A stretch of 64,000 nt of DNA, from assembly GCA_023250635.1 (NCBI GenBank), contig JAHFAI010000005.1:1-64000 (forward strand), written 5' to 3'. Source of the stretch: Deltaproteobacteria bacterium. GTDB taxonomy: Bacteria; Bdellovibrionota_B; Oligoflexia; Oligoflexales; Bog-1112. Positions 9,231-38,829 of this stretch are shown here, piece by piece (within the stretch, counting starts at the first letter, position 1; the number at the start of each line of letters is the position of its first letter). Below the pieces are notes generated by a model. It did no database searches, was not told where the DNA came from, and saw nothing but the letters and a program-made list of their open reading frames with translations. The position numbers and the translations under genes are program-made.

Positions 9231-9278
9231 TAGCGTAGACCCCACTAGGTATTTGCCTTAAGAATTTTTGGAGGAGTG

Positions 9279-10287: not shown

Positions 10288-11358
10288 TTATCGCCCTTTG
10301 CGTCCGCGTTTAGAAGCTGCTTTTTTCTTGATCGCTGGCGCTTTGCGGGCCTTAAGCTTTGCAGCTGCTTTTTTCTTTTTGGCTACCCTCGTTTTTGCCA
10401 CCTTTTTCTTCTTCGCCAGCGGCCTCTTCGCTGCAGGCTTCTTCGCTTTAACAACAGGCTTCTTCGCTTTAACAACAGGCTTCTTCGCTTTAACAACAGG
10501 CTTCTTCGCTGCAGGCTTCTTCGCTTTAACAACAGGCTTCTTCGCTGCAGGCTTCTTCCCTACGGGCTTCTTCGCTGCAGGCTTCTTCCCTATTTTTTTC
10601 TTCTTCGCCCCAGCCACCTTCTTGGCTACCTTTTTCTTCTTCCCTACAGCAGTCTTTTTCACTGCTTTTTTCTTCTTCCCTACGCTCTTCTTAGCCAGCG
10701 GTTTTTTAGCTGCCGGCTTCTTCGCTACCTTAGCTTGTGCCTTAGCCTTCTTCCCAGCTGCTTTTTTCTTCTTCATCCCCAGCTTTGCGTGCGGTGCAGA
10801 TTTTTTCTTAGCAGCCCGGCGAGCAACGGGTTCTTCGCCATAGGCGTGCTCAGGGTCGAGTACTAACTCCACCTCTTCAAAATCATCGCCGGCATCATCA
10901 TCAGCATTGCTAAAGGAAAAAACCTCTTCTTCACCGCTCAGATCTTCAGCATCGCCTAAATCCCGAGGCTCGATTTCAATCTCCTCATGGTCATGGGAGG
11001 CAACATCGGCGGCGGCGCTGGTCAGCAATTCATCTTCATCTTCATGGGCTAAATCATCGTCGTCGCTATCGTCGTCATCATCTTCAGTGCTAAAAAAACG
11101 GTGGTCATCCCCGTCTTCTTCATCTTCGTCTTCATGGTGTTCGCGCGAACTAATTTCTATATAATCAAGAGTCTCATCTTCGTCTTGGTGATCGTTACTC
11201 CGGCCCTCCGCAAAAAGCCCGCGGCGCTGCTCTTCACCAGGAAAGCTTCCCTCCTCGTGGGCATGGATCGTGCGATCGTCTTCAAGCGCTGCAGGTGCTT
11301 TTACCGGGGCGAAGGGAGACTGTTCATCCTTGTTTGTAACATCATCATGCTCTGCCAT
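10288..11358 (-). CDS. Bipartite acidic / lysine-rich histone-H1-like protein (356 aa)
   Basis: The N-terminal about 185 aa is extremely D/E-rich. The C-terminal about 170 aa consists of KKPAAKKPVVKAKKP-type repeats. RBS AAGGTGAGAG. The antisense ORF is a low-complexity mirror. Confidence 0.8.
   Translation of the reverse strand: MAEHDDVTNKDEQSPFAPVKAPAALEDDRTIHAHEEGSFPGEEQRRGLFAEGRSNDHQDEDETLDYIEISSREHHEDEDEEDGDDHRFFSTEDDDDDSDDDDLAHEDEDELLTSAAADVASHDHEEIEIEPRDLGDAEDLSGEEEVFSFSNADDDAGDDFEEVELVLDPEHAYGEEPVARRAAKKKSAPHAKLGMKKKKAAGKKAKAQAKVAKKPAAKKPLAKKSVGKKKKAVKKTAVGKKKKVAKKVAGAKKKKIGKKPAAKKPVGKKPAAKKPVVKAKKPAAKKPVVKAKKPVVKAKKPVVKAKKPAAKRPLAKKKKVAKTRVAKKKKAAAKLKARKAPAIKKKAASKRGRKGR
10421..10592. 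repeat. In-frame tandem repeats (21-bp and 15-bp units) inside the lysine-rich CDS
   Basis: GGCTTCTTCGCTTTAACAACA occurs three times in tandem (10436-10498) and once more at 10514-10534. It is interleaved with GGCTTCTTCGCTGCA units. These encode the AKKPVVK / AAKKP repeats. Confidence 0.9.
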
Positions 11359-15017: not shown

Positions 15018-15716
15018 ATGAAACATAAGCGCTTTATTCTTACCCTCATGGCGGTGCTTATCCCCTTAGGGATTATCGTAGTTTACGGGGGCAAGAAGAT
15101 GTTAAATGCCCGCCCCGGAGCTAGCCAGTATTTTAATGAAGCAAGTGCTGCCTACCATGCTAAGGATTTTGTTAAGGCAGGCGCAATAATCGCTGCCCAG
15201 CAAAGCAAAATTCTCGCTGAAGCAGAGGGCTGTGAACTTATTATTTCTGTCTATGCCGAGCTCGCAAATTTTTCGGCTTTGGAGGAGGTTTCACGAAGCT
15301 GCATCGCCACAAATCGAGCTGAGGGTATCGCTCATGAGGGGCTCGCCTTTAGTCTCTCCTCTCAGGGAAAAATTGCTGAAGCACTTACTGCTCTTGAAGC
15401 CGAGCAGCACAAAAAACCTGAGGTCCCGCGCATTGCCATCGCCTTGGCCCGCTTATTAGTTATGAGCGGGCAGGAGGAGCGAGGGGGCACGCTTTTTATA
15501 AGGGTTATCGAGAAAGAAACAAGCTGGTCCATGTGGCTTGCCGAAGCCCTCAAACAATCAGCCCTGCTCAAGCAGGCTAATTTTGTAGAAAAACTCAGCC
15601 AAGTAGTGTTAAAAAAAGAACTGGTATTTGCCCAACTGGAGGAAAAACTCGAAGCTGCTGCCCGAGCCCTTGAGCTTAAAGAGCTTGCCGAACTTCTAGC
15701 AGATCGGCACAAGTAA
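15018..15716 (+). CDS. Hypothetical membrane-anchored helical-repeat (TPR-like) protein
   Basis: N-terminal TM segment (FILTLMAVLIPLGIIVVY) followed by an Ala/Leu/Glu-rich helical region. No clear RBS. Confidence 0.45.
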   Translation: MKHKRFILTLMAVLIPLGIIVVYGGKKMLNARPGASQYFNEASAAYHAKDFVKAGAIIAAQQSKILAEAEGCELIISVYAELANFSALEEVSRSCIATNRAEGIAHEGLAFSLSSQGKIAEALTALEAEQHKKPEVPRIAIALARLLVMSGQEERGGTLFIRVIEKETSWSMWLAEALKQSALLKQANFVEKLSQVVLKKELVFAQLEEKLEAAARALELKELAELLADRHK

Positions 15717-17070: not shown

Positions 17071-18090
17071 TTAGCCACTAGAAAAACTAAACTCCGGTTT
17101 ATAAGCAGTGAAAAAAACTTTCTGGGTAGGGGCTAGTCCCTCTACCTTACAGGGGATCTCATAAATATCTTGATCAAATATCCCCGCAATTTTTAGGGAG
17201 AAATCACCAATTTTCTCCCGTGCAACAAACACCAGCTCAAGCCGAGCTAGCAGAGTTAAAGCATTGCCCGCTTCTCCCTCCAATTCAAGCCGAGCTGAAA
17301 TCGGTGATGCCAACTGCCTATTGAGCTCTACCCGCACCCCCCGCCGCAAGAGAATCGCTATGGGGGAGAACATCGCCTCTCGTTCCCCGCAAGCAATAAA
17401 CTCCTGCTCTTTACGCTTTAGTTCGAGCCGAGCTTCGAGCAATTCTAAGGGAATACTCAGGGAAAATCTCAGAGTTTTTTCCTCGCGAAACAACTCGGCA
17501 GAGGGACTATGGAGGAGCAGTACCCGAGGAGAAAGCTCTCCAGCTTTTTTTCGCCAAGAAAAGCCAACGGAATATCTGTTACCCCCATTAGTTAAACGCG
17601 CTGGTCGCAGCATGCCTCGTCCCCCCTGACTTACCGTCACCTCCATTAAGGCCGGTAACGAGCTCCCCCCGGGAAAGAGCTGATAGAAAGTCAGCAGGCG
17701 CACCCGTTTAACGGGATAGACGAGATAATAGGTAACTGTTTTGGCCATAAGCTCGCTTACCCTGAGGCCGTGAGGCCCCACCCTCATGGCTTTAGTCTGG
17801 ATAAGCTTCCCGCTAAGTCTACGCCCACTTTGTTCATGGAGATGCAAACACTCAAGGAGAAAAGCCCCGTGGCCCTTGATTGCTTGCTGGAGTACTTGCT
17901 GCCCAAGAAAACCCTGTTCATTCGCCTGGGCTGCTTGATACAAGGTGAAATCTTCATACATCACCGTAAGGGCAACCCGCACCTGTTCAGCACTTACTTC
18001 CACCTGCGCCGTGGTCAATGAAATGGGGTGGGCAAAGGACACTGCCCTCACCAGCACCAGTACCACTATCAGCACCCCTGATTTCAACAT
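17071..18090 (-). CDS. Hypothetical secreted protein whose predicted mature N-terminus starts with His
   Basis: Signal peptide ...VRAVSFA followed by HPISLTTAQVEV...MYEDF. From memory this pattern resembles DUF6702-type proteins (unverified). The start overlaps the GH38 stop by 7 nt. Confidence 0.55.
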   Translation of the reverse strand: MLKSGVLIVVLVLVRAVSFAHPISLTTAQVEVSAEQVRVALTVMYEDFTLYQAAQANEQGFLGQQVLQQAIKGHGAFLLECLHLHEQSGRRLSGKLIQTKAMRVGPHGLRVSELMAKTVTYYLVYPVKRVRLLTFYQLFPGGSSLPALMEVTVSQGGRGMLRPARLTNGGNRYSVGFSWRKKAGELSPRVLLLHSPSAELFREEKTLRFSLSIPLELLEARLELKRKEQEFIACGEREAMFSPIAILLRRGVRVELNRQLASPISARLELEGEAGNALTLLARLELVFVAREKIGDFSLKIAGIFDQDIYEIPCKVEGLAPTQKVFFTAYKPEFSFSSG

Positions 18091-21000
18091 CCCCCAGCCT
18101 CATCACAAAGGGCTGGACTCTGGGGTTGGAGCACCTGTCGCCCCGAGAAATCATCGTAAAGTGGCCAGGCAGGTTCAAGCTCCGCTGTGGGATCAGCGGC
18201 CACACTTACCGCAAAAATAGCCAGCTGGGGATTACGCGGCAAAGTAAGCTGACTGGCTCCCGGCTTCAATGGCAGCACATACTTGAATAAATATGAAAAG
18301 GTATAAGAGTCATTTTTGCCCGAGGCAAGATGGCGATGAGTAGCGAACCAGGCAATGGGTGCACGCTTAATGAAACCTGGTTCTATACGGATTACCTGGT
18401 CTTGGAGGGTGAAAATACGATTATCATAATCGCCAATCTTACCGTACCACTGTTGGATCGTACGCTGATAGATTTCATCATCGATGCTAAACGCAACCTC
18501 AGTATCTGAGCTTGCCGCAGCGAGCAGATACAGGCGATTATACGAGCCTGCAGGTAAAGCCAGCACCTGTCCTGCGGCAATAACCCCCTGCTGTTTACCA
18601 GCAGCAAGCACAAAACGTACCCCCTCACTGGTCAGCTCAGAGGGAAACTGCTCGGCTGGATAATTGGCTCCATCGCCAGGGAACGAGCCTACTCGCGCTT
18701 CCCCATCCCGAGAGGTAAATTGCCCATTAAAGGGCAAATCCACTGCGGTCGAAACCACCAAAACAGGCGGCTTTTCATCGACAACAAACTCCACCGCAAA
18801 ACTGCGTGGACTATAGGTTCCAAGCTCGGTAAGCAGCTGCTTATCAGCATAAACTGCTTCCCCTATTTTTCGTTCTTGAGCGTCAACTTCCCAGGCCTGA
18901 GCTATAGGCGCAGCAAAGCTCACCGTAAGGGAAGCATTCGCCATACCCCAGAGCTCTTGCAAGCGGATAATCGTCGCGGAACCGCTCTCTGCTTTTTTTA
19001 GCGCTCGTATTCCTACCTGGGGCGTACTGAGCTGGGCAAAAGAAAAACTTCGCCCCAGGTCGCCCGGATGGCGTTCACTGCGAAAAGCCTGGGGTTTTTG
19101 ATTAAGGCGTTCGCCCTGTTCATAAGTCAAATCGCTGCGCCAATCCCCGCGGTGCGGGAATATCCCATAGGTGAAATCATGATGCCCCCAGTCCTGAGAA
19201 GCCTCGTAGTGGTAGCCACCGCGTTCGGTGTTAGGCGTATAGAGAAGGGTCAGACGCACTTCATTATCGGAGGGTTTGTCAGAGCCAAATTTGCCGTCTT
19301 CGAGGATACTCACCCCGTAACTACCATCGCCAAGACTCAGGTCAAACCACTGATGACTTGGTACCTCGAATTTTCGTGGATGATTGTTATTGCGTTCGAT
19401 GGTCCCCAAACCCCAGTTATAGGTGGCGAGAGGATTAGCAATGGTCAGGGGAAAGCTTGCTTTTAATGACGAATTTTTGCTCAACCAATCGATAGCATTC
19501 CCTACCCACACAACCCGCGAACCGCGCACTAAGCTGAAACGCTGGACAAAGGTCGAATCCAAGGTTTTACGGCTTACCTGGAGGCTTACCCGTACCGGCC
19601 CCTGTTCTAATATCTCTATTTTTGCCGGACCACTTACGTGGGCGTAGGGTGGTTTTTGCCGATCGGCCCAGTCCATATTCCAAGCAGGAAATGCTTGGGG
19701 TTGCTCGTATTGAAAGACCAGCTGGGCAGGCTGAGCTAAGAGCTCACGTTCACCGTTTTCAAGATCGCGAATGCTTGCCACGTCTCCCTCAGGGTTGAGT
19801 TGCACCGCCAACAGACCATTGGTGAGGGAAGTTGCGGTCACTCCCAGAGGAGAGACCGTACGCTCCCCTTCACGGGCTGTACGCAGTGAGAACACCTCAA
19901 AACTAAGAGGGGCTAGTTCAGGAGCAAACACCACCACACTCGCGCCTGTCTCAAGACTGCTCACTTGCACCGGCCAGGCTCGACCCTGGGCATCTTCAGC
20001 TATCAGGGGCTGGGAGGGGAGTTCTTCGCGGGTAAAGTGCGCCTCCACTACATCCTGGCGAGGAATGGCCAGAGGGTTGTAGACCAGCAGCGGTAAAGGA
20101 ACCCTCGTCTCCAGGCGGCTTGCCACCGCCCCAACACTATAAAGCAGGGATGCGGCAAAACCATTAAGGGCAATCAGCTCATCGTTGTAGGAATATTCAT
20201 AGGCCTTAGGGAGACTCGTTCCCGGTAAGATATCGTGCATTTGGCTGCCGAGCACTCGCAGCCACGAGCGATTTATTTTTTCTTGGGGATAAGCAGCCTT
20301 GGCAAGCACAGAAGCTACCACCGCCGCCCGTTCCGCACTATCGGCCAGCTGCTCATTACGCCGATTCCACCGTTTCATATAAGCCTGGGAAGTTAACGTT
20401 CCTGCGGAATGTTCGGTGAGCAGCATATCTCCTTTATAGCGGGGCAAGAGCGCTTTTTGCTCATCACTAAGATCGCGAAAGAGTTGATCTGATGCCGCGG
20501 AAAGTACCGTGATCGGACCTCCAGGCTTGAGGCTTGCCATCACCTGCTTAACATCTTGTTCCCGGGGGGCTCCACCCTGGTCACCGACCCCGTAGTAGTG
20601 ATAGTCGGTATAAACCCCATATTTTAAGCCATTATCATTAACCCGTTCCACCCATTGTGGATCTGTATTGAGGGGTTGATGGACCTGTCCCACGTATTCA
20701 CCAGGATTCAGCGCCGCCACAATAGTTTTACCATCGGGTCCCTCCCACAGACCGAGATTAAAGGGAATACCTACCGCAGACCCCCAGGTAAGTTTCTGAG
20801 TAGAGAAACCTTTGAGTCCTGCATGAGCCCAAATACTCGGCATCGAGGCAGGAAAGCCAAAGCAGTCGGGCAGCATATAGTCAACACTTTCCCGATTAAA
20901 CTCGCGGCGAAAATAATTATTTCCGAGCAAAATTTGCCGGAAAATCGCTTCAGGAGAGGGCACATTAACATCGCCCTCATCCACCGACGAGCCCGAAACA

Positions 21001-21308
21001 AACCAACGATTTTGCTGGATATATGCTTTTAACTGCGCATAGTGCTGGGGAAAATACTCCTCCATCATCGCGTAGCGAATTGAACCGGTGAAATTAAAAT
21101 TATACTGGGGATAACGCTCAAAAAGAGCAAAATTGTCTTCGAGGGTACGTTTGATGAATTCATCGATGGTAACCTGGTAGGTCCACAGCCACTGGGTATC
21201 CAAGTGGGCATAAGCAACGACATAGAGGGTCTTGTCTTTGCTAAGATCAGCTTTGGCGATAAGCAAAGGTGGAGACAGCAAGAACAGTAGCGAAAGTTTT
21301 TTGAACAC
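18084..21308 (-). CDS. Secreted GH38 alpha-mannosidase
   Basis: GH38 N-terminal signature YVVAYAHLDTQWLW...NFNFTGS and about 1074 aa. GTG at 21308 is preceded by GGAGAGGA and followed by the signal-like KKLSLLFLLSPPLLIAKA. The longer track ORF would overlap the upstream gene by 128 nt. Confidence 0.85.
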   Translation of the reverse strand: MFKKLSLLFLLSPPLLIAKADLSKDKTLYVVAYAHLDTQWLWTYQVTIDEFIKRTLEDNFALFERYPQYNFNFTGSIRYAMMEEYFPQHYAQLKAYIQQNRWFVSGSSVDEGDVNVPSPEAIFRQILLGNNYFRREFNRESVDYMLPDCFGFPASMPSIWAHAGLKGFSTQKLTWGSAVGIPFNLGLWEGPDGKTIVAALNPGEYVGQVHQPLNTDPQWVERVNDNGLKYGVYTDYHYYGVGDQGGAPREQDVKQVMASLKPGGPITVLSAASDQLFRDLSDEQKALLPRYKGDMLLTEHSAGTLTSQAYMKRWNRRNEQLADSAERAAVVASVLAKAAYPQEKINRSWLRVLGSQMHDILPGTSLPKAYEYSYNDELIALNGFAASLLYSVGAVASRLETRVPLPLLVYNPLAIPRQDVVEAHFTREELPSQPLIAEDAQGRAWPVQVSSLETGASVVVFAPELAPLSFEVFSLRTAREGERTVSPLGVTATSLTNGLLAVQLNPEGDVASIRDLENGERELLAQPAQLVFQYEQPQAFPAWNMDWADRQKPPYAHVSGPAKIEILEQGPVRVSLQVSRKTLDSTFVQRFSLVRGSRVVWVGNAIDWLSKNSSLKASFPLTIANPLATYNWGLGTIERNNNHPRKFEVPSHQWFDLSLGDGSYGVSILEDGKFGSDKPSDNEVRLTLLYTPNTERGGYHYEASQDWGHHDFTYGIFPHRGDWRSDLTYEQGERLNQKPQAFRSERHPGDLGRSFSFAQLSTPQVGIRALKKAESGSATIIRLQELWGMANASLTVSFAAPIAQAWEVDAQERKIGEAVYADKQLLTELGTYSPRSFAVEFVVDEKPPVLVVSTAVDLPFNGQFTSRDGEARVGSFPGDGANYPAEQFPSELTSEGVRFVLAAGKQQGVIAAGQVLALPAGSYNRLYLLAAASSDTEVAFSIDDEIYQRTIQQWYGKIGDYDNRIFTLQDQVIRIEPGFIKRAPIAWFATHRHLASGKNDSYTFSYLFKYVLPLKPGASQLTLPRNPQLAIFAVSVAADPTAELEPAWPLYDDFSGRQVLQPQSPALCDEAGGC

Positions 21309-21327
21309 GTATCCTCTCCGTAAAAAT

Positions 21328-22404
21328 TCAAGTGCCGTATAGCATGCTGCGCTCAACAAACCAATATATACCGATAAGCAGACAAACAGCACTGGCAAGC
21401 CGATAGACCGGCAGCAACGTTCGCACCGTCCACAAGAGCGGGTAATACATCGCAATAACCAAAAACTGCCCTAGTTCTACCCCGCAATTAAAAAAGAGGA
21501 GAGCCAGAATCTGCTGATCGGCAAGCAGCGAAAGATCCTGCATAACATTAGCAAAGCCAAAGCCATGAATTAAGCCTAGGGCAAAGATAATCACCAGGGA
21601 ATCACCCCAAAAATGCCAGAAATTATTCACCGCAACGAGACTAATAGATAAAGCAATTGCTGCTTCTATGAAGCCGACCGAAGGCGAACAAATTTTTAGC
21701 CCGGCGAGCGCTAAAGTGAGAGAATGGCCTAGGGTAAAAGCCGTGCAATAACGCAGAACCTGCAATAAGCGCTGACGATGAGTCGCTACACCTTCGCCAA
21801 AAAAGAGGGGTAACAACAAGGCAAATAAAAATAAGAGATGATCATAACCCTCGAGAATATGGCTTACCCCCTCCATAATAAGCGACCAAAATAGCTGACT
21901 ACTCGCTATCTTCTCCTGCAAAAATACCTTGACCGAGGGTACGGTTGCGCTGAGCATGGCGGTATACGGAGAGCCCTGATTACCTGCCCGCACAAAGGTA
22001 CGATGTTCGGCATCTGCAGCAAACATAAAGGTCGAAGTTATGCGGAGGTGCTCGATCTTATTGGCACAGGCAACACTGAAGGCAAGGCTCAGATAGCTCT
22101 CTCGTGGCAGCTTGTTTTCGAGTTGAGTGAGAGAACGGGGAGTGAGCATGCAGGCCTGGGGACCATTGTCTACGGTCAAGCGGCTGAGCAAGTATGCCGT
22201 GGCCCTCTCCCGAGGGGGGAGCTCCTCGGGAGAGAGACCAAGGGCAAAGGCCACATCACTCACCGCAATATTCCACGAAGCAAGTACCACTCGCTCGCCG
22301 CTCGTTTGCGTAAAGCGTAGATAGCTATAGGCGGAATGATGAGCAGACAAAGAAGCTGCGAAGCCCGTTAGGCTTATTAGTATAATGAGTATAGATTGAT
22401 TCAT
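21328..22404 (-). CDS. HupE/UreJ-family membrane protein with an N-terminal periplasmic domain
   Basis: HILEGYDHLLFLFALLLP motif and a multi-TM C-terminal half. Signal peptide ...ASLSA followed by HHSAYSYLRF. Confidence 0.7.
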   Translation of the reverse strand: MNQSILIILISLTGFAASLSAHHSAYSYLRFTQTSGERVVLASWNIAVSDVAFALGLSPEELPPRERATAYLLSRLTVDNGPQACMLTPRSLTQLENKLPRESYLSLAFSVACANKIEHLRITSTFMFAADAEHRTFVRAGNQGSPYTAMLSATVPSVKVFLQEKIASSQLFWSLIMEGVSHILEGYDHLLFLFALLLPLFFGEGVATHRQRLLQVLRYCTAFTLGHSLTLALAGLKICSPSVGFIEAAIALSISLVAVNNFWHFWGDSLVIIFALGLIHGFGFANVMQDLSLLADQQILALLFFNCGVELGQFLVIAMYYPLLWTVRTLLPVYRLASAVCLLIGIYWFVERSMLYGT

Positions 22405-22437
22405 GTCACCACTATATTCCCAAGCAAGGAGCAGAGC

Positions 22438-22803
22438 ATGGCCAAACCACCGCGGAAAACTTCTCTAGGCGAAATAGCTGAAGAAGTAAGCAATGATGAT
22501 TTTCCCAGCGTCGATGATACATCCGATTCCCGTGAAGAACGAAAAAATGGTGAAGTAAAAATCCGCCTCCAGCTGAATGCTCCCAAAGATCATCCTCTCA
22601 GCTGGTTTAGTGAGGAAGTTAAAATGCGCGGCATCAAAAATTTGGATCTTAACACCCTGGTGCTTACCGCCATAAGTGAGCTCGGCGATTCCTGGTGGCG
22701 TCAGATCCTTGAAGAACATACTCCTCTCGAGTATAAAATATCCGCAGCCTTAGCAGATCCGGCGATGCGCGAAAAACTAAAGTTGCTCCTCGCCAGCCAA
22801 TAA
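22438..22803 (+). CDS. Hypothetical protein (121 aa)
   Basis: ATG at 22438 preceded by AGGAG. Acidic N-terminus. No family recognised. Confidence 0.45.
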   Translation: MAKPPRKTSLGEIAEEVSNDDFPSVDDTSDSREERKNGEVKIRLQLNAPKDHPLSWFSEEVKMRGIKNLDLNTLVLTAISELGDSWWRQILEEHTPLEYKISAALADPAMREKLKLLLASQ

Positions 22804-22844
22804 GCTCGCTCCACGGAGAATGCTAACCAACGAAAGGAAGCCCC

Positions 22845-24233
22845 ATGACAACACGCCTCGAATCGGACTCTAGCGGCGAAATCGCCGTCCCTGCTGCCGC
22901 CTATTGGGGAGCACAAACCCAACGCTCCCTCGAAAATTTCACCATCGGCGGCCAACGTTTTAGTCGGACCATGATTTGGGCCATGGGTATGGTGAAAAAA
23001 GCTGCAGCTCAGGTTAACGGCGACCTAGGGAAGCTTTCTGCTGACAAGGTTTCAGCTATCTCACAGGCCTGCGATGAAGTTATCGCCGGCTCCCTCGATC
23101 AGGAATTTCCCCTGGTGGTGTGGCAGACCGGCTCAGGCACCCAAAGCAATATGAATGCCAACGAAGTCATTGCCAATAAAGCTATTGAGCTGCTAGGCGG
23201 TCAACTCGGCAGCAAACATCCCATCCATCCTAACGACGATGTTAATAAATCCCAGTCGTCAAACGATGCCTTCCCTACCTTTATGCACGTAGCTGCGGTG
23301 AAAGATCTCCAAGGCAAACTATTACCCGCACTCAGCGCTCTTGAAAGGGTTCTCCACAAAAAATCTCAGGATTTTAAAGATATTATTAAAATCGGACGCA
23401 CCCACTTGATGGATGCCACCCCCCTGTCCCTTGGTCAGGAAATCGGGGGCTGGGCGGCCCAATTGGCTTATGCCCGTAACGAAGTCGAACGCACCAGTGT
23501 AGGTCTCTACTCCCTGGCCATGGGAGGCACTGCAGTGGGCACTGGCCTGAATACCCACCCGCAGTTTGCCGAGCGCTCAGCCAAAAAACTCGCTACCCTG
23601 ACCGGCTATCCTTTTATTACGGCGGTGGATAAATTTGCTGCACTGAGTGCCCACGATGCCATAGTGGCGATGAGTGGCGCTCTCAAAACGTTGGCCACCG
23701 CCTGCATGAAGATCGCCAATGACCTACGTTTCTTGGCTAGCGGTCCGCGCTGTGGTATCGGCGAATTGCTTATCCCTGCAAATGAGCCGGGGAGCTCCAT
23801 TATGCCGGGCAAGGTAAATCCCACCCAATGTGAAGCGATGACCATGGTGGCTGCTCAAGTTATGGGCAATGATGTAACCATCGCTATCGCAGGAAGTAAC
23901 GGGCATTTTCAGCTTAACGTCTTTAAGCCCGTACTGATTCATAACCTGCTTGAATCCATCAATCTTCTCGCTGATTCGCTCTCCTGTTTCACCGCCAAAT
24001 GTGCCTCCGGCATCGAGCCTAATCGTGCCGTCATTAGCAAAAATCTTAATAATTCCCTTATGCTGGTCACTGCGCTGAACCAGCTGATCGGCTATGACAA
24101 GGCTGCGGAAATCGCTAAAAAAGCCTGGAAAGAGGATAGCAGCCTTAAAGAGGCGGCCATTAAGTCTGGGTATATTTCCGCCGAAGATTTTGACAAATAC
24201 GTTCGCCCTGAGCAGATGATTGCTCCACACTAG
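22845..24233 (+). CDS. fumC: Fumarate hydratase class II
   Basis: [15 protein letters not shown] signature, 462 aa, AAGGAAG RBS. Confidence 0.95.
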
Positions 24234-24369
24234 GGAGAGCTTCCGTAGTTTTTCATTGCGAGAATACAGAAAATTGGTAGAATCATCGGCTTGTTGCCCA
24301 GGCTCTGCCAATTTAGGCATAAAGTTAATTATTACAATATCTTATTAAGATCTTTTGAGGAGTATGGTC

Positions 24370-24537
24370 ATGGCGCGTTCTAATCGCCGCGAAAAAGTTA
24401 AGCTTGTTTCCACTGCCAATACCGGTGTGTATTACACCGTCAACAAGTTGAAAGGCAAAGACAAGCTGAACCTAAAAAAATACGACCCCAAGGTTCGTAA
24501 GCATGTGGAGTTTAAAGAAGCCAAGCTCACAAAATAA
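24370..24537 (+). CDS. rpmG: 50S ribosomal protein L33
   Basis: [30 protein letters not shown]... is typical of L33. GAGGAG lies 8 nt upstream of ATG 24370. Confidence 0.88.
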
Positions 24538-24574
24538 CGACCCCCAAGCCTTGAGTCGTTGGTATGTTAAGTAT

Positions 24575-27118
24575 CTATGCCTGCAGAATCACCGGTTCGG
24601 CTAAAATCGCGCCGGTGATCTTGATCAACTTCTCCAGTAACTCATCTTCGCTCTTTTTACCCTGTTTTGGCCACGCTAAGGCATGCATCAACACCTCATC
24701 CATATGTTCTACCGGCACAAAAGTCATGCTGGCCCGTACCGCCTCCGGTATTTCACTCAGGTCCTTGATATTATCCTTAGGGAAAATCACCGTGGTCAGG
24801 CCGCTGCGATGAGCTGCCAAAGCCTTTTCCTTAAGTCCGCCAATGGGCAGGGACTTGCCCCTCAGGGTGATTTCCCCGGTCATCGCCACGTTTTTGCGAA
24901 TCGGACGTTGGGTCAGTGCACTGGTTAAGGCCGTGGCCATGGTCAGGCCCGCCGATGGTCCATCCTTGGGAATAGCCCCTTCAGGCACATGAATATGTAT
25001 ATCGAGAATCTGGTAAAAATCCTCGGCCAGGCCAAGAAACTTTGCCCGCGAGCGCACATAACTCATGGCCGCTTGAGCCGACTCCTGCATGACATCACCC
25101 AGCTTGCCGGTGATGGTTAATTTACCCTTGCCCGGCAAAACCACCACCTCGATCAATAACAGCTCGCCCCCCGCCTGGGTCCAGGCCAAGCCTGTACACA
25201 CGCCAATCTCATCACACTCACTCTGGGGGCTAAAGCGATGGCGACGCGGCCCAAGATAGTCCTGCACTGATTGGGCGGTTATTTCCTCGTAGAAGCCCCC
25301 GGTAAGTTCAGAGACTTTGGCCTCGGCGGGTGCTGTTTTTTTGCTGGTTTTTTTGGCACGAGCACTGGTGGCTGTTTCACCCGGGGGATTTAAAGCAGCG
25401 GCTTTCAAATGCTGGCGAGCTGATTTGCGCAACAACGAGGCTAGCTCCCGCTCGAGACCTCGTACGCCTGCCTCTCGGGTATAATAACGGATTAGCTCGG
25501 TGATCGCCCCGCGCTCAAAGCTGATGTGGGATTTTTCCAGCCCATGTTCCTTAATTTGCTTAGTAACCAAATATTTGGTGGCAATTTGCAGTTTTTCATC
25601 TTCGGTATAGCCGGCGATTCTAATCAACTCCATCCGGTCGAGCAGCGGTCCGGGTATTCCTTCCGTTGAATTGGCCGTAGCAATAAATAGACAGTGGGAG
25701 AGATCAAAATCGAGGTCAAGATAATGGTCATTAAAAGCACAGTTCTGCTCGGGGTCAAGCACTTCCAGCATTGCCGCAGCAGGGTCACCGCGATAGTCAT
25801 TGCCCATTTTATCAATCTCATCAAGGAGAATTACCGGATTGGCCGTACCAGCACGCTTGAGTGCGGCAATTATTTTGCCGGGCATAGAGCCAATATAGGT
25901 TTTGCGATGCCCACGAATTTCTGCCTGATCCTTGACCCCACCTAAGGAAATACGGACAAATTTGCGGTTTACTGCCTCGGCAACACTGCGCGCTAAGGAG
26001 GTTTTACCAACCCCAGGAGGACCAACGATACAGAGAATCGGCCCCTTCATTTGCTCTACAATATTACGTATGGCTAAATATTCGAGTATCCGATCCTTAA
26101 CTTTTTCCAAACCAAAATGATCACGATTCAGTACCTCTTCGGCAAAAGCGATATTTTTAATGTCTTCGCTATAGGATTGCCACGGTAGGGAAAGCACCGT
26201 CTCGATAAAATTACGAACGACGGTGGCTTCTGCCGACATCGCTGACATAGTCTTGAGCTTTTTGATTTCTTTGGCGATCTTTTGCTGAGCATCAGCAGAG
26301 AGCTTTACTTTTTTGAGCTGGGCCTCCATTTCGCGTAATTCGCTGCGGCTATCGTCTTTCTCTCCTAGTTCCTTTTGAATCGCGGTGATCTGTTCATTAA
26401 GATAATATTCCTTCTGGGTTTTCTCCATTTGCCGTTTTACTCGGGCGCGAATTTTTTTCTCGACCCGCATTATCTCAATTTCTGACTGAATCGAACCAAA
26501 GACCTGCTCCAGACGGAGACGGGGATTTACCTCTTCCAGCAATTTTTGCTTAGCTTCGAGTTTCAGGTTAGATAAATGGGAAACCAAGGTATCAGCAAGC
26601 TTCGACTCGTCGTCAATTTGACTTATTGAAAGCAGCAATTCAGCGGGAATACGCTTATTAAGCCGGACATAGTTATCAAAAGCAACTTTGACGGTGCGGA
26701 CGATGGCTTCATTTTCAAAACCGACTTGTTTTTTTTCCTCGAGGACGACTGCCTCAACCGTATAAAAATCGTCACATTTGGTAAATTTCAGAATTTTTGC
26801 ACGTTTTTTGCCTTCCACCAGCACTTTTACCGTGCCATCAGGAAGGCGGAGGAGCTGCAAAATAGTCGCCAAGGTCCCGATTTCGTAAAGGTCCTCACTG
26901 GTGGGGTCGGTGGTTTTAGCTTTTTTTTGCGCCACCAAAAAAACATCCTTTTTTTCCTCCATCGCCTGTTCGAGCGCGCGGATTGATTTATCCCGACCGA
27001 CAAACAGCGGCACAATGGTTGCAGGAAAAATAATGATATCTCTCAGGGGGAGAAGAGGGACGCTGATCTTTTGGTAGACCCGGGCTTTGCCAGGCTTGTT
27101 CTCATTCGCCTCAGACAT
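24575..27118 (-). CDS. lon: ATP-dependent Lon protease
   Basis: Walker [10 protein letters not shown], Walker B ILLDEIDK, and the Ser-Lys dyad context PKDGPSAG / [11 protein letters not shown] 27118 is preceded by AAGGAGGAG. Confidence 0.95.
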
Positions 27119-27167
27119 AAAGCTCTCCTCCTTTAAATGGTTTAGCGAGCAAAACTCCACAGCAGGG

Positions 27168-27209
27168 GCCAGCAGCACTACCAGGTAGAAGACGGGTAGT
27201 GCTGCTGGC
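27168..27209. promoter_or_regulatory. Perfect 15-bp inverted repeat 50-90 nt upstream of the lon start
   Basis: GCCAGCAGCACTACC (27168-27182), a 12-nt loop and GGTAGTGCTGCTGGC (27195-27209). It contains AGCACT-N18-AGTGCT. Confidence 0.5.
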
Positions 27210-27411
27210 AACCACAGCTGGCGATAACAAGGGATTTGCAAGTACCGAAGAGAGGAGAGCCAAACTCACCACCCTACTGCTCAAAAAAAAAACAGACTGG
27301 CTATAGAGGGACTACACTTAAGTATAGTATAAACGATATTTAGTGTGGTGACGAGTCTTGGCAAAGAAACCTAGAGGAATAACCCATCCAGCTTAAAGAG
27401 GAAATTACTAC

Positions 27412-28725
27412 CTAGCGCAGCGGATCAGTACCGGTATTGCCACTGCTGGCTTCACCTTTAGTGCGATTTAGCGTCTCCTCGTCTTTATCATCTTTGGAAC
27501 GAAACACCATAATCGGCTCTGATTTAAGCTCGATACACTCCTCGGTGATAATGACTTCCCGCAGCTCGGGCTGGCTGGGTAATTCGTACATAATATCAAG
27601 CATGGCCTCTTCCAAAATTGCCCGCAAACCACGTGCGCCGGTTTTTCGTTTTTGGGCTTCTCGGACTACGGCGACCAGCGCTCCCTCAGTAAACTTCAGA
27701 GCAACTTTTTCGAATTCGAACAACTTTTTAAATTGTTTGACAATCGCGTTCTTGGGCAAAGTAAGGATTTTAATTAAGGTCTGCTCATCGAGCTCAGTCA
27801 GCGCACAAATTACCGGCACCCGTCCGACAAATTCAGGGATCAAGCCAAAGCGCATCAGGTCTTCAGTGCGCACCTGGAGCAGCACATTCTCCATGCGTTC
27901 CTGTTTGCGGCGTTTAACATCCGCACCAAAGCCCATGGTATTGACCTCTACCCGCTGGAGGATAATTTTTTCCAAACCCGCAAAGGCCCCGCCACAGATA
28001 AAAAGGATATTGGTGGTGTCCACCTGGAGAAATTCCTGCTGGGGGTGCTTACGTCCTCCCCGCGGCGGGACATTAGCGATGGTACCTTCCATGATCTTCA
28101 GCAAGGCTTGCTGCACCCCTTCTCCGGAGACATCCCGAGTAATCGAGGGGTTCTCGCCCTTGCGAGCAATTTTGTCGATTTCATCGATATAGGCTATACC
28201 CCGTTGGGCGAGCTCCACATCGTAATCGGCACTTTGCAGCAGATTAAGGATGATGTTTTCCACGTCCTCACCCACATAACCCGCTTCAGTTAAATTGGTG
28301 GCGTCAGAGATGGTAAAGGGCACATGCAGAATCCGAGCCAGAGTTTGTGCTAAGAGGGTTTTGCCACTTCCGGTTGGACCGATAAGCAGAATATTGGATT
28401 TGGCCAATTCCACTTCATCGTCTTTGTCTTTAAAACGGGCATCGATACGTTTGTAGTGGTTATGCACGGCAACGGCTAAGGTTTTCTTCGCCTGGTCTTG
28501 ACCGACGATGTAGTCGTCGAGAACTTTGCGAATATCTTTGGGGTTAGGTACCTTCCCTGTGGGCTCGAGGAGTTCTTCTTTTTCGACCTCCTCGGCGATT
28601 ATATCGTTACACAGCTGAATACACTCATCGCAGATATAGACGCTTGGTCCAGCGATAAGCTTTTTTACTTCCCGCTGGCCCTTGCCACAGAAGCTACAAT
28701 GTAATCCACCGTCTTTAGTTACCAT
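27412..28725 (-). CDS. clpX: ATP-dependent Clp protease ATP-binding subunit ClpX
   Basis: Zn-finger CSFCGK...CDEC, Walker A GPTGSGKT, pore loop GYVG, RKH loop [10 protein letters not shown]. The ClpP-docking loop reads MGF where the canonical sequence is IGF. Confidence 0.95.
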
Positions 28726-28758
28726 ATCTCCCTCGTCCTCAGACGCCTATGGCGCAAA

Positions 28759-29358
28759 CTAGGATTTTTCTCTGGTTTTGGCGCTGCCTACCACTTCGTC
28801 TACTATGCCGTAGTCGCGTGCCATTTTTGCCGACATGTAATTATAGCGGTCTATATCGCTTATAACCTTCTCGTAAGGCTTGGCCGTATGCAGCGCTAAA
28901 ATCTCGCACATCCGTTTGCGCTGCGCCAATACTTCCTGAGCCTGAATATTGATATCGGTAGCCTGTCCAGTCGCACCGCCAAAAGGCTGATGGATCATAA
29001 TGCGCGAATTCGGTAGGGCATAACGCTTGCCTGCTTGTCCTGCAGCTAAGAGCCAGGCCCCCATATTAGCACATTGGCCGATACAATAGGTGCGCACATT
29101 AGAGCGAATATGCTGCATCGCATCGTAAATCGCCATTCCCGCTGAAACTGAGCCCCCGGGAGAATTGATATACAGATGAATATCCTTTTCCGGATCCTCG
29201 CTCTCCAAAAACAAGAGCTGGGCAACTACCACGTTGGCGATCTCATCAACAATGGGAGTCCCTAAAATAATGATACGGTCACGCAGCAGGCGCGAATAAA
29301 TATCCCACGACCGCTCACCTCTGCTGGTGCTTTCTACTACAATCGGTACTAATGCCAT
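28759..29358 (-). CDS. clpP: ClpP-family subunit with a non-canonical triad (Asn98-His123-Tyr172); predicted catalytically inactive, ClpR-like
   Basis: Collinear, ungapped match to my remembered E. coli and B. subtilis ClpP sequences. [11 protein letters not shown] aligns with GQAASMGAF, with AAT at 29065-29067. [11 protein letters not shown] aligns with RDTERDRFLSA, with TAT at 28843-28845. IMIHQP is retained. ATG 29358 is preceded by AGAGGAG. Confidence 0.85.
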
Positions 29359-29430
29359 GCTCAAAGCTCCTCTACCCTAAATTCGCTGCTAGCCCCACCA
29401 TAAGTCAGAACTGCACAGCTGACAAGTTAA

Positions 29431-29461
29431 AGCACCGTCACCCCGGGGGCCTGACAGTGCT
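29431..29461. promoter_or_regulatory. Inverted repeat about 70-100 nt upstream of clpP and 28 nt downstream of the tig stop
   Basis: AGCACCGTCA (29431-29440), an 11-nt spacer CCCCGGGGGCC and TGACAGTGCT (29452-29461). The geometry is AGCACC-N19-AGTGCT. The minus strand reads TTAGCACTG..., which is like a CIRCE half-site. Confidence 0.45.
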
Positions 29462-29489
29462 AAACGAGAAAGAGAGAGAGACTCTGTTT

Positions 29490-30773
29490 TTACAGCACCA
29501 CGGGAGTTGTACTACAGATGGCAGAGGCCAGAGCTAGCTGCATAGCTTTTTCAAGTAAGATGCTTTCTCGTACCTGCTGACCAACCTTTTCCATAAGCGT
29601 CGCAAGTTGCTGACTCGTCGCCTTGGCTAATTCAGCATAGCGCTTGAGCAGCTCCTCGTGCACTTCGCTATCGCTTACTTCAATGGCCTCTTCCTTGCCT
29701 ATTTGCCAGAGAATCAGGGTATTTTTAACCTTGGTAGTCGCCTCAGCTCGCAGCGATTTACGCACTTCAGAGTCGCGTTGGGCTTTTTTCTTATCTTCAT
29801 CATTGAGAAAAGTATATTCCTGAATCATGGAGTCGATGGTTTGATCCACCAGTACCGGAGGAACTTCAAAATCCAACTGAGTACTCAACGCTTTAAAAAA
29901 TTCTTCGCGCTTGGAACGATCCTCTTGCTCAGCGCTATATTGGTGTAACTGCTCGCGAATTTTTTGACGCAATTCACCGAGATCGGCACAATTCATATCT
30001 TTAGCAAATTGATCGTCGATTACCGGGATGCTCAATTGCTTAAGGTCTTCAAGAATCACCGTCAGCGCTACTGCTTTACCAGCAAGAGCGGCATCACCAT
30101 AATCACCGGGCAAGGAGAAAGCCAATTCTTTGCTCTCGCCTTTTTTCATCCCGAGCATGCCTGCTTCTAACATCGGTAAGACTTCGCCTTCACCAAGGGC
30201 AATCGCTGCCGACTTTACCTCCACGGCAGGATGCGCCACCCCATCCACCGTGCCATGATGAGTGATGGTGCCTAAATGTCCCTGGGCAGCGGCAACCCCT
30301 TCAGCAAGATCACTGGCCGTAGCCATCCTTCGCGCCAAGGCCTTGAGTTCACGATCCACGGTGGTTTCAGTAAAGCTATATTCCTTAGGGGCGAGGCTTA
30401 GCCCCTTGTAACAAGCGTTTAAAACCAGCTGGGGCATCAAATCAACGACTGCAGAGAAGCTGTACTCACTGTCCATTGACGGTACGTCACGGATTTCTAC
30501 GACTGGAGCCGAAATTACTTTAATCTGATTTTCGCTAATCGCTGAATAGAGATGATCATCCACTAACACATCAGCCACATCGCGAGCTGCTTGATGGCTA
30601 TACAGGCGTTTAATTACCGTGAGTGGAGCCTTGCCGGGGCGAAAGCCATCAATCCGGGCTTTTTTCTGTAAGCCAGCATAAACCTTATTAAAGGCTTTGG
30701 TAACCACATCGCTCGGCACCGTAATCGAAACCCGTCGCTGGACGGAATTAAGTTCTTCAACTGTTGCTTTCAT
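29490..30773 (-). CDS. tig: Trigger factor
   Basis: N-terminal MKATVEELNSVQRRVSITVP..., 427 aa, and a position upstream of clpP-clpX-lon. Confidence 0.93.
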   Translation of the reverse strand: MKATVEELNSVQRRVSITVPSDVVTKAFNKVYAGLQKKARIDGFRPGKAPLTVIKRLYSHQAARDVADVLVDDHLYSAISENQIKVISAPVVEIRDVPSMDSEYSFSAVVDLMPQLVLNACYKGLSLAPKEYSFTETTVDRELKALARRMATASDLAEGVAAAQGHLGTITHHGTVDGVAHPAVEVKSAAIALGEGEVLPMLEAGMLGMKKGESKELAFSLPGDYGDAALAGKAVALTVILEDLKQLSIPVIDDQFAKDMNCADLGELRQKIREQLHQYSAEQEDRSKREEFFKALSTQLDFEVPPVLVDQTIDSMIQEYTFLNDEDKKKAQRDSEVRKSLRAEATTKVKNTLILWQIGKEEAIEVSDSEVHEELLKRYAELAKATSQQLATLMEKVGQQVRESILLEKAMQLALASAICSTTPVVL

Positions 30774-32240: not shown

Positions 32241-33650
32241 TTAAAGATGTATGCCTCCCCCATCAGCCATGTGGGCCGCTTCCATAATGGTCTCGGCGAT
32301 GGTCGGATGAGGGTGAATCGCGTGACCAAATTCATCCACCGTGGCCTCGAGCATTTTGCCCAAGACAAATTCACTGATCAACTCGGTGGCTCGAGCCCCG
32401 ATAATATGCACCCCGAGAATTTCCCGATATTTGGTCCCATAGAGAATTTTTATAAAGCCATCACGGGCATTTTCAATCTTCGCCTTAGCCAGTGGAGCAA
32501 AGGGAAATGTAACCTTTTCGAAAGCAATACCTTCTTTGACCAGCAGGGCCTCAGTCATTCCTAAACTCGCTACTTCGGGATAGGTGTAAATCCCCGAGGG
32601 ATTGCTCGAGTAGTCGAGGGGAGTGAGGGAACGTCCCGCAATTATTTCCACGGCATGTTTTGCTTCCGCAGAAGCGGTATGGGCGAGGGCCGGGGTATTA
32701 ATGATATCGCCCACCGCAAAAATACCCGGCACACTGCTTTGATAATGGCTATCAACCCGCACAAAGGGACCATCCATGGCAAGCCCCAAGGCTTCAAGCC
32801 CCATATCTTTCACTTGCGCAAGACGCCCTATGGAGGTCAGCACTATCTCGGCACTGAGCTCACTGCTGGTCTCTGCTTGCGAGGTTTTATAGGTGACCTG
32901 TAGGCCTTTTTTGCTGAGTTTACAGCCGGTAAAGGTAGCTGCGGTGATCACCGTAACATTTTGTTTTTTGAGCAAGCGAGTAAGCTCACTGACCACTTCC
33001 ACATCTTCGCTTGGCAAAATTTGCTTTTGCATTTCGAGCACCGTTACCATCGAGCCAAAACGACCAAAGAGCGAGGCAAACTCCATCCCTACCACCCCCC
33101 CACCGATGATCACCATACTGCTTGGTACATGATCAATAGAAAGGATGGAATCCGAAGTAAAAATATGCTGGCCATCAGCGTGCGCTCCCGGCAACTCACG
33201 CACTGCCGACCCCGTTGCTAAGAGCACGGCTTTTTTTGCCCGCAGCTTAAACGTCTCTCCTCCCGCAGCAGCGACTACCACCAGGTTTTTTTCGCCGAGA
33301 CGAGCCCGTCCCACTACTCGGGTGACTTTGTTTTTTTTCATCAGAAAAGTAAGGCCATTGCGCTGCTGATTGACTACTTCGTTTTTGCGCGCAAGGATTT
33401 TTTCCCAACTAAAACTAAGATTTTCTGCTGCCAATCCCCAGTGACTCAACTGCTGCACCTGGCTCCACATTTTTGCCGATTCGATTAAAGCTTTGGTGGG
33501 TATACAACCGAAGTTCAGACAGGTGCCACCTAGATGCTCGTATTGTTCGACGATGGCAACGCTTAGCCCCAGCTGTGCGGCTCGGATTGCCCCCACCTCA
33601 CCAGCTGGTCCCGCCCCAATAATGATTAAATCATAGGAGTTTATTTCCAT
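32241..33650 (-). CDS. lpdA: Dihydrolipoyl dehydrogenase (E3)
   Basis: GAGPAG FAD motif, redox-active GGTCLNFGCIPTK, C-terminal HPHPTIAE. Confidence 0.9.
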   Translation of the reverse strand: MEINSYDLIIIGAGPAGEVGAIRAAQLGLSVAIVEQYEHLGGTCLNFGCIPTKALIESAKMWSQVQQLSHWGLAAENLSFSWEKILARKNEVVNQQRNGLTFLMKKNKVTRVVGRARLGEKNLVVVAAAGGETFKLRAKKAVLLATGSAVRELPGAHADGQHIFTSDSILSIDHVPSSMVIIGGGVVGMEFASLFGRFGSMVTVLEMQKQILPSEDVEVVSELTRLLKKQNVTVITAATFTGCKLSKKGLQVTYKTSQAETSSELSAEIVLTSIGRLAQVKDMGLEALGLAMDGPFVRVDSHYQSSVPGIFAVGDIINTPALAHTASAEAKHAVEIIAGRSLTPLDYSSNPSGIYTYPEVASLGMTEALLVKEGIAFEKVTFPFAPLAKAKIENARDGFIKILYGTKYREILGVHIIGARATELISEFVLGKMLEATVDEFGHAIHPHPTIAETIMEAAHMADGGGIHL

Positions 33651-37636: not shown

Positions 37637-37888
37637 TTATCGAGACGTCACCTCGCATACATGTTTTATCCCAAGGACATTGCCGCAGCGCGTGCATATC
37701 TCAATAATGGTTTCATCGTTTCTCTCAACCCGAGCTTCTCTAAAAGAACGTGCGGCTCGTGCCCCTCCCTGACTATGACCAAATAAAAAGGGAGAAATCC
37801 CCAAGGTTCTCAGCAATTTTTTAAACCACTGTTGAGCAAGAAAAAAACCAACAAGCCACACGCTTATTTTAAATAACAGCGCAATCAT
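37637..37888 (-). CDS. Hypothetical membrane-anchored small protein (83 aa) with C-terminal CxxC
   Basis: N-terminal TM segment and C-terminal ICTRCGN...HVC. Its ATG overlaps the upstream gene's stop (ATGA). Confidence 0.4.
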   Translation of the reverse strand: MIALLFKISVWLVGFFLAQQWFKKLLRTLGISPFLFGHSQGGARAARSFREARVERNDETIIEICTRCGNVLGIKHVCEVTSR

Positions 37889-38829
37889 CGCCCCACTCCC
37901 CGAGCTGCAAGCAAGTACAAGGCCGAGCCAGCAAGGATCACGGTAAAGATAATTGCCACGAGATACAAGTAATTTCGCTCTTTAGGAATACCAGTAATCT
38001 CTACCCTTCGTAGGGCTCCTGCAGCTAAATCCTTACTCAGAATACCTCGATAGGTTCCTGAAGAGAGCATGGCGGGAAGGCCCTCGCTAAACTCTTCCCG
38101 CGCACCGCTATTGCTTACCAGCACCCCACTACCAAGGGTCGAAGCCAGTGAAAATTCTCCGATGGCAAAGGGAGCAACAAAGGTAAGCTGATCTCGAGAA
38201 AATTTCGCAACCTTGGTTTGAAAGCCAATACTGAGGAGAGAGATACCCGGTGCGAATTCTTTCTCTAGGAAGATTTTTCCATGGTGATCGAGCTGCAAAT
38301 TTTCGGCAGTGAGACCCTCGAGAGCCTGAAAATCAACGGTTTCCCGGGGAAGCATTACCTCACTACGAAAACGTTGAGGCTGATTGCTTTTATTGTGCAC
38401 CGCAAAAAAATACTGCCCCCACACGGTATCTAAGTCAGCATTGACTAAGACAATATGGCGAAGCGTTCGTGCAATGCTTGCTTCATCAGCCTCAAGAGGA
38501 GCTGAGCCGAGAAATATCCCCATTCCCGCCATGCCCGCAAGCAAGACCCCAAGCCTGGACAAATGCTGTAATCGGCGCCCGAGGTCTACGTAACGGTTGC
38601 CTAAGTAACGCTGACGAATCTGCCATTCTCGCTGGCTAATAGCGCCCTGCTTATACGCCTCTTCATCGGCAAGATACGCATCCAGTAGCTTTGTTTGCCG
38701 ACGTTTGAGCTCCTCAGGGTTGTTAGCAATTGTTGCCGGCAGGAGCACCCCTTCATCACACAACCAAAAAGGCGAGAGTAGCGTAATCAGCAAGGAGACG
38801 GCTAGCAGCCCACAGATAACCACAACCAT
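37885..38829 (-). CDS. Hypothetical polytopic membrane protein, translationally coupled to ccmH
   Basis: Three TM segments at the N-terminus, around residue 95 and at the C-terminus. A charged helical loop sits between TM1 and TM2, followed by a domain of about 170 aa. One-nt overlap with the ccmH stop. Confidence 0.55.
   Translation of the reverse strand: MVVVICGLLAVSLLITLLSPFWLCDEGVLLPATIANNPEELKRRQTKLLDAYLADEEAYKQGAISQREWQIRQRYLGNRYVDLGRRLQHLSRLGVLLAGMAGMGIFLGSAPLEADEASIARTLRHIVLVNADLDTVWGQYFFAVHNKSNQPQRFRSEVMLPRETVDFQALEGLTAENLQLDHHGKIFLEKEFAPGISLLSIGFQTKVAKFSRDQLTFVAPFAIGEFSLASTLGSGVLVSNSGAREEFSEGLPAMLSSGTYRGILSKDLAAGALRRVEITGIPKERNYLYLVAIIFTVILAGSALYLLAARGVGR

Follow-up and report, generated by a model that had tools for sequence, protein, structure and literature searches.

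A clpX-linked ClpP ortholog with two of three catalytic residues replaced, conserved in Oligoflexales-like bacteria

The clpP locus

The stretch of DNA analysed in this study, hereafter called the window, comprises positions 1 to 64,000 (64 kb) of contig JAHFAI010000005.1 in the Deltaproteobacteria bacterium assembly GCA_023250635.1, and the gene in question is a clpP ortholog, encoded by the minus-strand open reading frame (ORF) 28759-29358, whose 199-amino-acid product has lost two of the three residues of the catalytic triad and retained the third, His123. The genes around it stand in the order tig-clpP-clpX-lon. The ATG at 29358 was taken as the start of clpP because a GAGGAG ribosome-binding site and the N-terminus of the homologs agree with it, and clpP and clpX are probably co-transcribed. 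A weak sigma-70-like promoter was found in the tig-clpP spacer as a match to the consensus only, the regional count of such sites near clpP being not above the shuffled expectation. For lon, the ORF obtained mechanically (24575-27241, minus strand) has a TTG start and 888 amino acids, while an ATG start at 27118 (847 amino acids, MSEANENK...) is favoured by the homologs and by the gene call on the ENA contig ERZ27280176 k141_701807, which is 100% identical to the window over positions 18759-30256 (11.5 kb) and possibly comes from the same reads. The features of the locus are as follows.

29490-30773, minus strand: tig (trigger factor), upstream of clpP; Pfam Trigger_N and Trigger_C in the orthologs L001, L004 and L107
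29397-29425, minus strand: weak match to a sigma-70-like promoter (TTGTCA-17-TATGGT) between tig and clpP; consensus 9/12
29367-29372, minus strand: GAGGAG ribosome-binding site, 8 nucleotides upstream of the clpP ATG; sequence reading
28759-29358, minus strand: clpP ortholog with Asn98/His123/Tyr172 instead of Ser/His/Asp; PF00574, NF001368 and gapless PDB alignments
29065-29067, minus strand: codon 98, AAT (Asn), at the position of the nucleophile Ser; alignment and direct codon reading
28990-28992, minus strand: codon 123, CAT (His), triad His retained; alignment and direct codon reading
28843-28845, minus strand: codon 172, TAT (Tyr), at the position of the triad Asp; alignment and direct codon reading
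27412-28725, minus strand: clpX, 437 amino acids, beginning 33 nucleotides downstream of clpP; ORF and motifs
24575-27118, minus strand: lon, 847 amino acids, Walker A and Ser/Lys dyad motifs (DGPSAG, GGLKEK) intact; gene call, identical ENA contig

Homology and assignment of the triad residues

The clpP product matched the Pfam family PF00574 (CLP_protease) over residues 13-191 with an E value of 2.6e-76, passed the NCBIfam model NF001368 with 308.5 bits against a cutoff of 249, and scored 302.7 bits against the TIGR00493 equivalog, marginally under its cutoff of 308.6. A phmmer search of the PDB sequences returned 110 ClpP matches, and since the printed alignments to solved ClpP structures were gapless over about 190 residues, at E values of about 1e-72 to 1e-78 and down to 2e-78 in the search as a whole, the homology to ClpP is settled. 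An AlphaFold2 model of the monomer, computed from a 53-sequence alignment, was too poor to be used (mean predicted local distance difference test score 54, predicted template modelling score 0.46) and was set aside.

In the HMMER alignment with the solved ClpPs, the window motif GQCANMGAW pairs with GQAASMGA, placing Asn98 at the nucleophile Ser; IMIHQP pairs with IMIHQP, so that His123 is kept; and DIDRYNYMS pairs with DIERDYFMS and DTERDNFMS, placing Tyr172 at the triad Asp. The MAFFT alignment of 120 homologs gave the same placement of N98, H123 and Y172, with His123 invariant in 120 of 120. The initial annotation had made this assignment by eye, and both the residues and their codon coordinates are borne out by the gapless HMMER alignment, the MAFFT alignment and the direct reading of the codons. 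Lacking both the Ser nucleophile and the Asp, a ClpP active site should not hydrolyse peptides, and ClpP with Ser changed to Ala is the standard inactive 'trap'. Judged from its triad positions, the ClpP of the window is very probably non-catalytic.

Nearest relatives and selection

Besides the window protein itself, a search of 5.8 billion proteins listed 119 relatives; all 120 sequences were aligned and divided into seven with Asn98 and 113 with Ser98. The five nearest relatives, P0002-P0006, are 84-89% identical to the window protein and all carry Asn98 together with Asn172; they come from JGI 3300045502 (two contigs), JGI 3300072654/SRR22388247, JGI 3300046304 and ENA ERZ27296333. The nearest clade, the window included, thus has six members, all with Asn98 and with Asn or Tyr at 172. 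The nearest relative with Ser98/Asp172 is P0007, at 81% identity, and this is the state from P0007 outward among the near relatives. In total, Asn98 was present in seven protein clusters and in locus L009 of a metagenome-assembled genome (MAG), from at least six samples and two lineages, and the clpP ORF is intact in every contig that carries it.

At the DNA level, codon 98 is AAT in all coding DNA of the Asn98 lineages, that is, in five clade members from different samples, in L009 and in P0100, in comparison to mostly AGY in the Ser98 relatives. Codon 172 is GAY (Asp) in the Ser98 relatives and AAT or AAC (Asn) in the relatives within the clade, and TAT was found in the window lineage only. 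Residue 172 is not Asp in the window sequence; its identity as Tyr has weaker support, coming from the window lineage alone.

Selection was estimated by the Nei-Gojobori method on between-lineage pairs from the window and four of the five relatives (P0006 was left out). The proportion of synonymous differences (pS) was 0.70-0.89, which is saturated, in comparison to a proportion of nonsynonymous differences (pN) of 0.04-0.12, and the ratio of the corresponding rates (dN/dS) was 0.02-0.06 wherever dS was computable. The amino acid distance to four outgroups was 0.28-0.31 for the Asn98 proteins and 0.26-0.28 for the Ser98 relatives, and the Asn98 proteins are thus not noticeably faster-evolving. 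The selection acting on it matches that on catalytic ClpPs in strength, and the putative pseudoprotease thus has a function.

The positions at which the clade departs from its relatives were examined in a set of 89 positions, each conserved in 95% or more of the 113 Ser98 relatives. Of these, 84 are fully retained by the six-member clade, clade-wide changes occur only at 98 and 172, and the remaining three show sporadic conservative changes (I64L, T72S and K147R). The retained positions include residues 1-29 with the N-terminal gating loop, in agreement with the earlier observation that the axial region is conserved, as well as SPGG, HQP-GG and D170-R171. Two changes placed at random among the 89 positions would both hit triad sites with a probability of about 3/3916. 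The loss of the triad is surgical, affecting the catalytic residues only, while the rest of the protein is held by strong purifying selection.

Outside 98 and 172, the conserved core has just two clade-specific changes, D87N (window codon 87, 29098-29100) and E179M (window codon 179, 28822-28824); a further clade-specific change lies at position 197, in the variable C-terminal tail. The residue that follows the HQP motif (codon 126, 28981-28983, Phe in the window) is Phe or Tyr in 7/7 Asn98 sequences in comparison to only 12/113 Ser98 sequences, most of which have Leu. Phe is likewise the residue of P0007, P0034 and P0056, which are sister lineages with Ser98, and could therefore be a background that permitted the loss of the triad instead of resulting from it. 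JGI annotates P0002-P0005 as "ATP-dependent Clp protease proteolytic subunit"; judged from their triads, such proteins are almost certainly unable to cleave, and the automated annotation as a protease is misleading.

A second Asn98 lineage and triad variation in the group

A second lineage, consisting of P0100 and L009, has the triad Asn98/His123/Asp172. In the MAG 'Deltaproteobacteria bacterium RH-23may17-178' (CANJLI01), L009 corresponds to contig CANJLI010000032.1, with clpP at 10001-10600, and the clpP of P0100 lies at 1469-2074 of L108/L109. Their ClpPs share 94% identity with one another and about 71% with the window protein, and the pN/pS of 0.06 between them indicates purifying selection. 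In a neighbour-joining tree built from 189 columns, with the two triad columns masked and 100 bootstraps, the six-member Asn98 clade was monophyletic in 86/100 bootstraps and P0100 grouped with L009 in 100/100, and the two Asn98 lineages grouped together in 0/100. The tree indicates that the Ser-to-Asn change at position 98 was acquired twice, independently.

The tig-clpP-clpX(-lon) locus is common to P0007, which has Ser98, and to P0100 and L009, which have Asn98. The full order of the window, tig-clpP-clpX-lon, was also found in L001, L004, L107, L108 and L009, and the longer order miaA-mutL-engB-lpdA-E2-tig-clpP-clpX-lon is shared by the window and the Oligoflexales MAG DT_79 (L007). Sequence and gene order mark the Asn98 clpP genes as orthologs changed in place, not paralogs.

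To place these triads in a wider frame, the GTDB genomes were scanned with the window protein and the 80 best matches, reaching down to about 59% identity, were kept. The alignment of these 80 loci gave 78 Ser-His-Asp triads, one Ser-His-Asn and one Asn-His-Asp, and both non-canonical triads fell within the nine nearest loci (L007-L015), in comparison to 0/71 among the other ClpPs. The scan found no GTDB representative genome that carries the Asn98/Asn172 clade itself, the best match being 76% identical and having Ser98. Among the 113 Ser98 homologs, three are Ser-His-Asn (P0035, P0049 and P0057) and one is Ser-His-Glu (P0020), and L008 (259-849) likewise combines Ser98 with Asn172. Residue 172 thus varies to an unusual degree in this group of ClpPs from uncultured bacteria, which we call Oligoflexales-like on the basis of ClpP, ClpX and Lon similarity and of the submitters' names for the nearest MAGs (Oligoflexales or, in older naming, 'Deltaproteobacteria' and 'Proteobacteria'). 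The pattern of residues hints that the group may get by in part without catalysis by the clpX-linked copy, as a catalytic partner would permit. A scan of metagenomes for the motif G-Q-C-x-N-M-x-A-W, written as GGNCARTGYNNNAAYATGNNNGCNTGG, gave 20 matches, none of which encodes ClpP by tblastn, and these were discarded as chance matches.

ClpX and its docking loop

The ClpX encoded next to clpP has the following motifs.

28357-28380, minus strand: ClpX Walker A
28270-28281, minus strand: ClpX GYVG pore loop
28171-28191, minus strand: ClpX Walker B
28045-28053, minus strand: ClpX RKH
27928-27936, minus strand: ClpX MGF loop for docking to ClpP

ClpX is strongly conserved across the Asn98 lineages, and in all of them the zinc-finger N-domain, Walker A and B, GYVG, RKH, the sensor motifs and the docking tripeptide are intact, consistent with the initial annotation, which had described the pore, RKH and docking loops as kept. 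The same annotation had pointed out MGF in place of the canonical IGF as the docking tripeptide. MGF is indeed present, and it is also found in the Ser98 relatives L007, L010 and L013, so that it is unlinked to the loss of the triad and a co-adaptation of the loop to a dead ClpP was ruled out; by this comparison, MGF is a feature of the group rather than a response to a dead ClpP.

Interpretation

We consider it somewhat probable, at roughly 0.55, that a canonical, clpX-linked ClpP ortholog has turned into a pseudoprotease, that is, into a non-catalytic subunit to which ClpX docks, with the catalytic ClpP encoded elsewhere in the genome. Because the gating loop, the ring motifs, Asp170-Arg171 and the docking loop are all conserved, the pseudo-ClpP would still assemble into heptameric rings and would accept the ClpX hexamer via the MGF loops. 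Once docked to ClpX, it would pass the unfolded polypeptide into the chamber, where the cutting sites, if any, would be supplied by a second, intact ClpP from elsewhere in the genome. The resulting Clp core would be functionally asymmetric, with one ring for docking and one for cutting, or else with mixed rings.

Several observations weigh against a catalytic partner. No second ClpP was found by tblastn in the 64-kb window, neither a second ClpP nor a ClpA/ClpC-type gene was found in the Pfam scans of 30 window ORFs or among the precomputed domains of the clp flanks, and no second ClpP lies within 10 kb on either side at the 80 related genome loci. For the Asn98 MAG CANJLI01, no second contig appeared among the 80 best genome matches, which extend to about 59% identity. 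The partner search as a whole covered 64 kb of the window genome and 15-20 kb of the others and found no second ClpP. Bdellovibrio bacteriovorus, in the same phylum, has a single known ClpP, which lowers the prior for a partner, and the paralogs in known two-ClpP systems have usually moved much further away from canonical ClpP than the window protein has. Moreover, the invariant His123 and the HQP and GG motifs are not obviously required by a pure scaffold role.

In a tentative and clearly less likely explanation, the dead ClpP is the only ClpP of the genome and forms with ClpX a non-proteolytic machine, ClpP being kept as a processivity or grip factor and a regulator of ClpX, or as a sequestration chamber, while Lon and other proteases carry out the degradation. 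It agrees with the lack of a second ClpP in the window, in the loci of 10 kb on either side and among the 80 best genome matches, with a protein that looks like a recent, near-canonical derivative of an apparently single-copy ortholog, with selection as strong as that on catalytic ClpPs, and with the catalytic motifs of the adjacent Lon. It is also consistent with the report that E. coli ClpP holds on to its substrate at more than 40 pN with or without Ser97, and that ClpP S97A rescues a ClpX defective in unfolding (bioRxiv 10.1101/2022.05.14.491966). On the other hand, a dead chamber would bind up substrate in stoichiometric amounts, like the ClpP-trap variants of the laboratory, which would seem costly without a route of release; the naturally degenerate ClpPs in the searched literature all co-occur with an intact paralog; and the partner search was very incomplete, reaching 64 kb in the window genome and 15-20 kb in the remaining ones. 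If this explanation were true, a free-living bacterial lineage and, independently, a second one would have made a non-proteolytic machine out of ClpXP, a universal protease, with the dead barrel retained by strong selection for mechanical or regulatory reasons alone, and without a catalytic partner this would be, to our knowledge, the first bacterial ClpXP retained as a non-protease.

That hydrolysis is kept by some other mechanism, such as a water activated by His123, another nucleophile, or a new chemistry at the ClpP/crotonase oxyanion hole, appears improbable. The invariance of His123, Gln124, Pro125, Gly68-Gly69 and Met99 in the Asn98 lineages could be read in its favour, as could the convergence of both independent lineages on Asn. 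An Asn at position 98 or 172, however, is one G-to-A transition away from AGY or GAY, the plain product of such a change in an AGY Ser codon, so that the convergence needs no special explanation. Enzymes with an Asn nucleophile (the asparagine peptide lyases) are single-turnover self-cleavers and not processive peptidases. A compensating nucleophile was looked for and rejected, as no clade-specific Ser, Thr or Cys was gained near the site, D87N and E179M being the only other clade-specific changes of the core, and Cys96, found in 119/120 homologs, is already present in 112/113 Ser98 relatives and is thus no compensating change. Least credible of all is an artefact, in which the two codons would have been misread in sequencing or assembly, or a pseudogene in decay. 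Each change is one nucleotide from a Ser, Asp or Asn codon, and Tyr172 is confined to the window lineage, but Asn98 recurs across the seven clusters, L009 and both lineages, none of the contigs has a broken ORF, dN/dS does not exceed about 0.06 at saturated synonymous divergence, and the identical sequence occurs in a second assembly. Sequencing error and a decaying pseudogene are excluded for position 98, and the view of the initial annotation that the changes are not random error is upheld by the conservation of Asn98 in the clade and by purifying selection.

Other features of the window

The other genes of the window are of ordinary chromosomal housekeeping type and include uvrC, greA, cysS, proS, pepQ, fumC, rpmG, E2/E3, engB, mutL, miaA, ccmF, hemF, NAD-GDH, acs and fadAB. 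A serine recombinase gene (Resolvase and HTH_38; 56035-56640, minus strand) lies among housekeeping and metabolic genes and may be what is left of a mobile element or mark its edge. A large gene for a GH38 alpha-mannosidase-like protein (18084-21455, minus strand), in which Glyco_hydro_38N/C were found on the identical ENA contig, adjoins the gene of a HupE/UreJ-like membrane protein. No Pfam match at E <= 1e-5 was obtained for the ORFs 9276-10202, 10288-11358, 15018-15716, 17071-18090, 37885-38829 and 54147-55304 (232-385 amino acids); ORF 17071-18090 corresponds to a gene with the precomputed annotation HupE_UreJ_2. The dihydrolipoyl dehydrogenase gene is intact in the window (32241-33650, 469 amino acids), and in the relative P0003 it appears as two ORFs of 309 and 148 amino acids (L001, 5614-7004), a split that a frameshift or a faulty assembly of the JGI contig probably explains.

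Comparison with known ClpP systems

In comparison to the canonical ClpPs of E. coli, B. subtilis and S. aureus, the window protein has the same length, aligns without gaps, is encoded in the same tig-clpP-clpX-lon locus, and shares the axial loop LVPxVxExTxRGERxxDIYSRLL, SPGG, HQPxGG and Asp170-Arg171. The difference lies in the triad: the canonical proteins (MEROPS S14) have Ser98 and Asp172, whereas the window protein has Asn98 and Tyr172, the latter replaced by Asn172 in its relatives. ClpP counts as an obligate serine protease with an almost invariant triad, Ser-His-Asp being present in 78 of the 80 best GTDB matches.

The initial annotation had described the protein as a ClpR-type non-catalytic subunit. 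A non-catalytic role is very probable from the triad residues, and like ClpR of cyanobacteria, plastids and apicoplasts, the protein is a conserved subunit of the ClpP fold without a working triad, ClpR being presumed structural. Membership in the ClpR family was ruled out, as the protein nests among the canonical ClpP orthologs, has a Ser98 ortholog 81% identical to it in the same locus, and is marked as a canonical ortholog by tree, locus and gapless alignment. ClpR typically lacks all three triad residues and is an old, diverged paralog family found in mixed ClpP/ClpR cores; the window protein, in contrast, is a recent derivative formed in place, which keeps His123, has no indels relative to ClpP, adjoins clpX and has no adjacent gene for a catalytic partner.

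Non-catalytic ClpP subunits are a known concept, and degenerate ClpPs have been reported from outside cyanobacteria and plastids as well. Degenerate clpP alleles have been noted in Nocardia, S. coelicolor and Leptospira, in each case in bacteria with multiple clpP genes (PMC9067928). In Listeria monocytogenes, ClpP1 has Ser98/His123/Asn172, and its triad is reported to be aligned and active only in the complex with ClpP2 (as cited in PMC9765437). The Asn172 of Listeria ClpP1 resembles that of the five nearest relatives, and the combination of Ser98 with Asn172 recurs in P0035, P0049, P0057 and L008; Listeria ClpP1 keeps the Ser nucleophile, however, and since the window protein has none, it is not of the S98/H123/N172 type. 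The initial annotation knew of no ClpR at the primary clpP-clpX locus of another bacterium, and a near-canonical ClpP ortholog next to clpX, with its triad lost twice under strong constraint, was not found described in the searched literature. Literature searches for ClpP of Oligoflexia or Bdellovibrionota gave nothing relevant.

The ClpP-trap of the laboratory (E. coli ClpP S97A) is similar in that the nucleophile is gone and the rest is intact, and it assembles, binds ClpX and accepts and grips substrate; the trap is engineered and carries Ala, whereas the window protein is a natural, selected allele with Asn.

The best functional analogy is with the actinobacterial ClpP2. In M. tuberculosis, only the catalysis of ClpP1 is essential, ClpP2 scaffolds the binding of the chaperone, and ClpP2 S110A functions normally (PMC9067928). 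In Streptomyces, a core built from ClpP1 and ClpP2 S131A loses none of its protease activity, and the ATPases bind at the ClpP2 ring (PMC9765437). The ClpP2 proteins of both have a full Ser-His-Asp triad and are encoded in clpP1-clpP2 operons, whereas the window protein has lost its triad and has no known partner gene. If the proposed role as a ClpX-docking pseudoprotease is correct, the locus would be a natural counterpart of the docking-ring experiments in Mycobacterium and Streptomyces, set in a canonical clpP-clpX operon and arisen twice, and it could serve as a clean natural system for the roles of ClpP besides cutting, such as docking and gating, the grip on the substrate and the allosteric control of ClpX.

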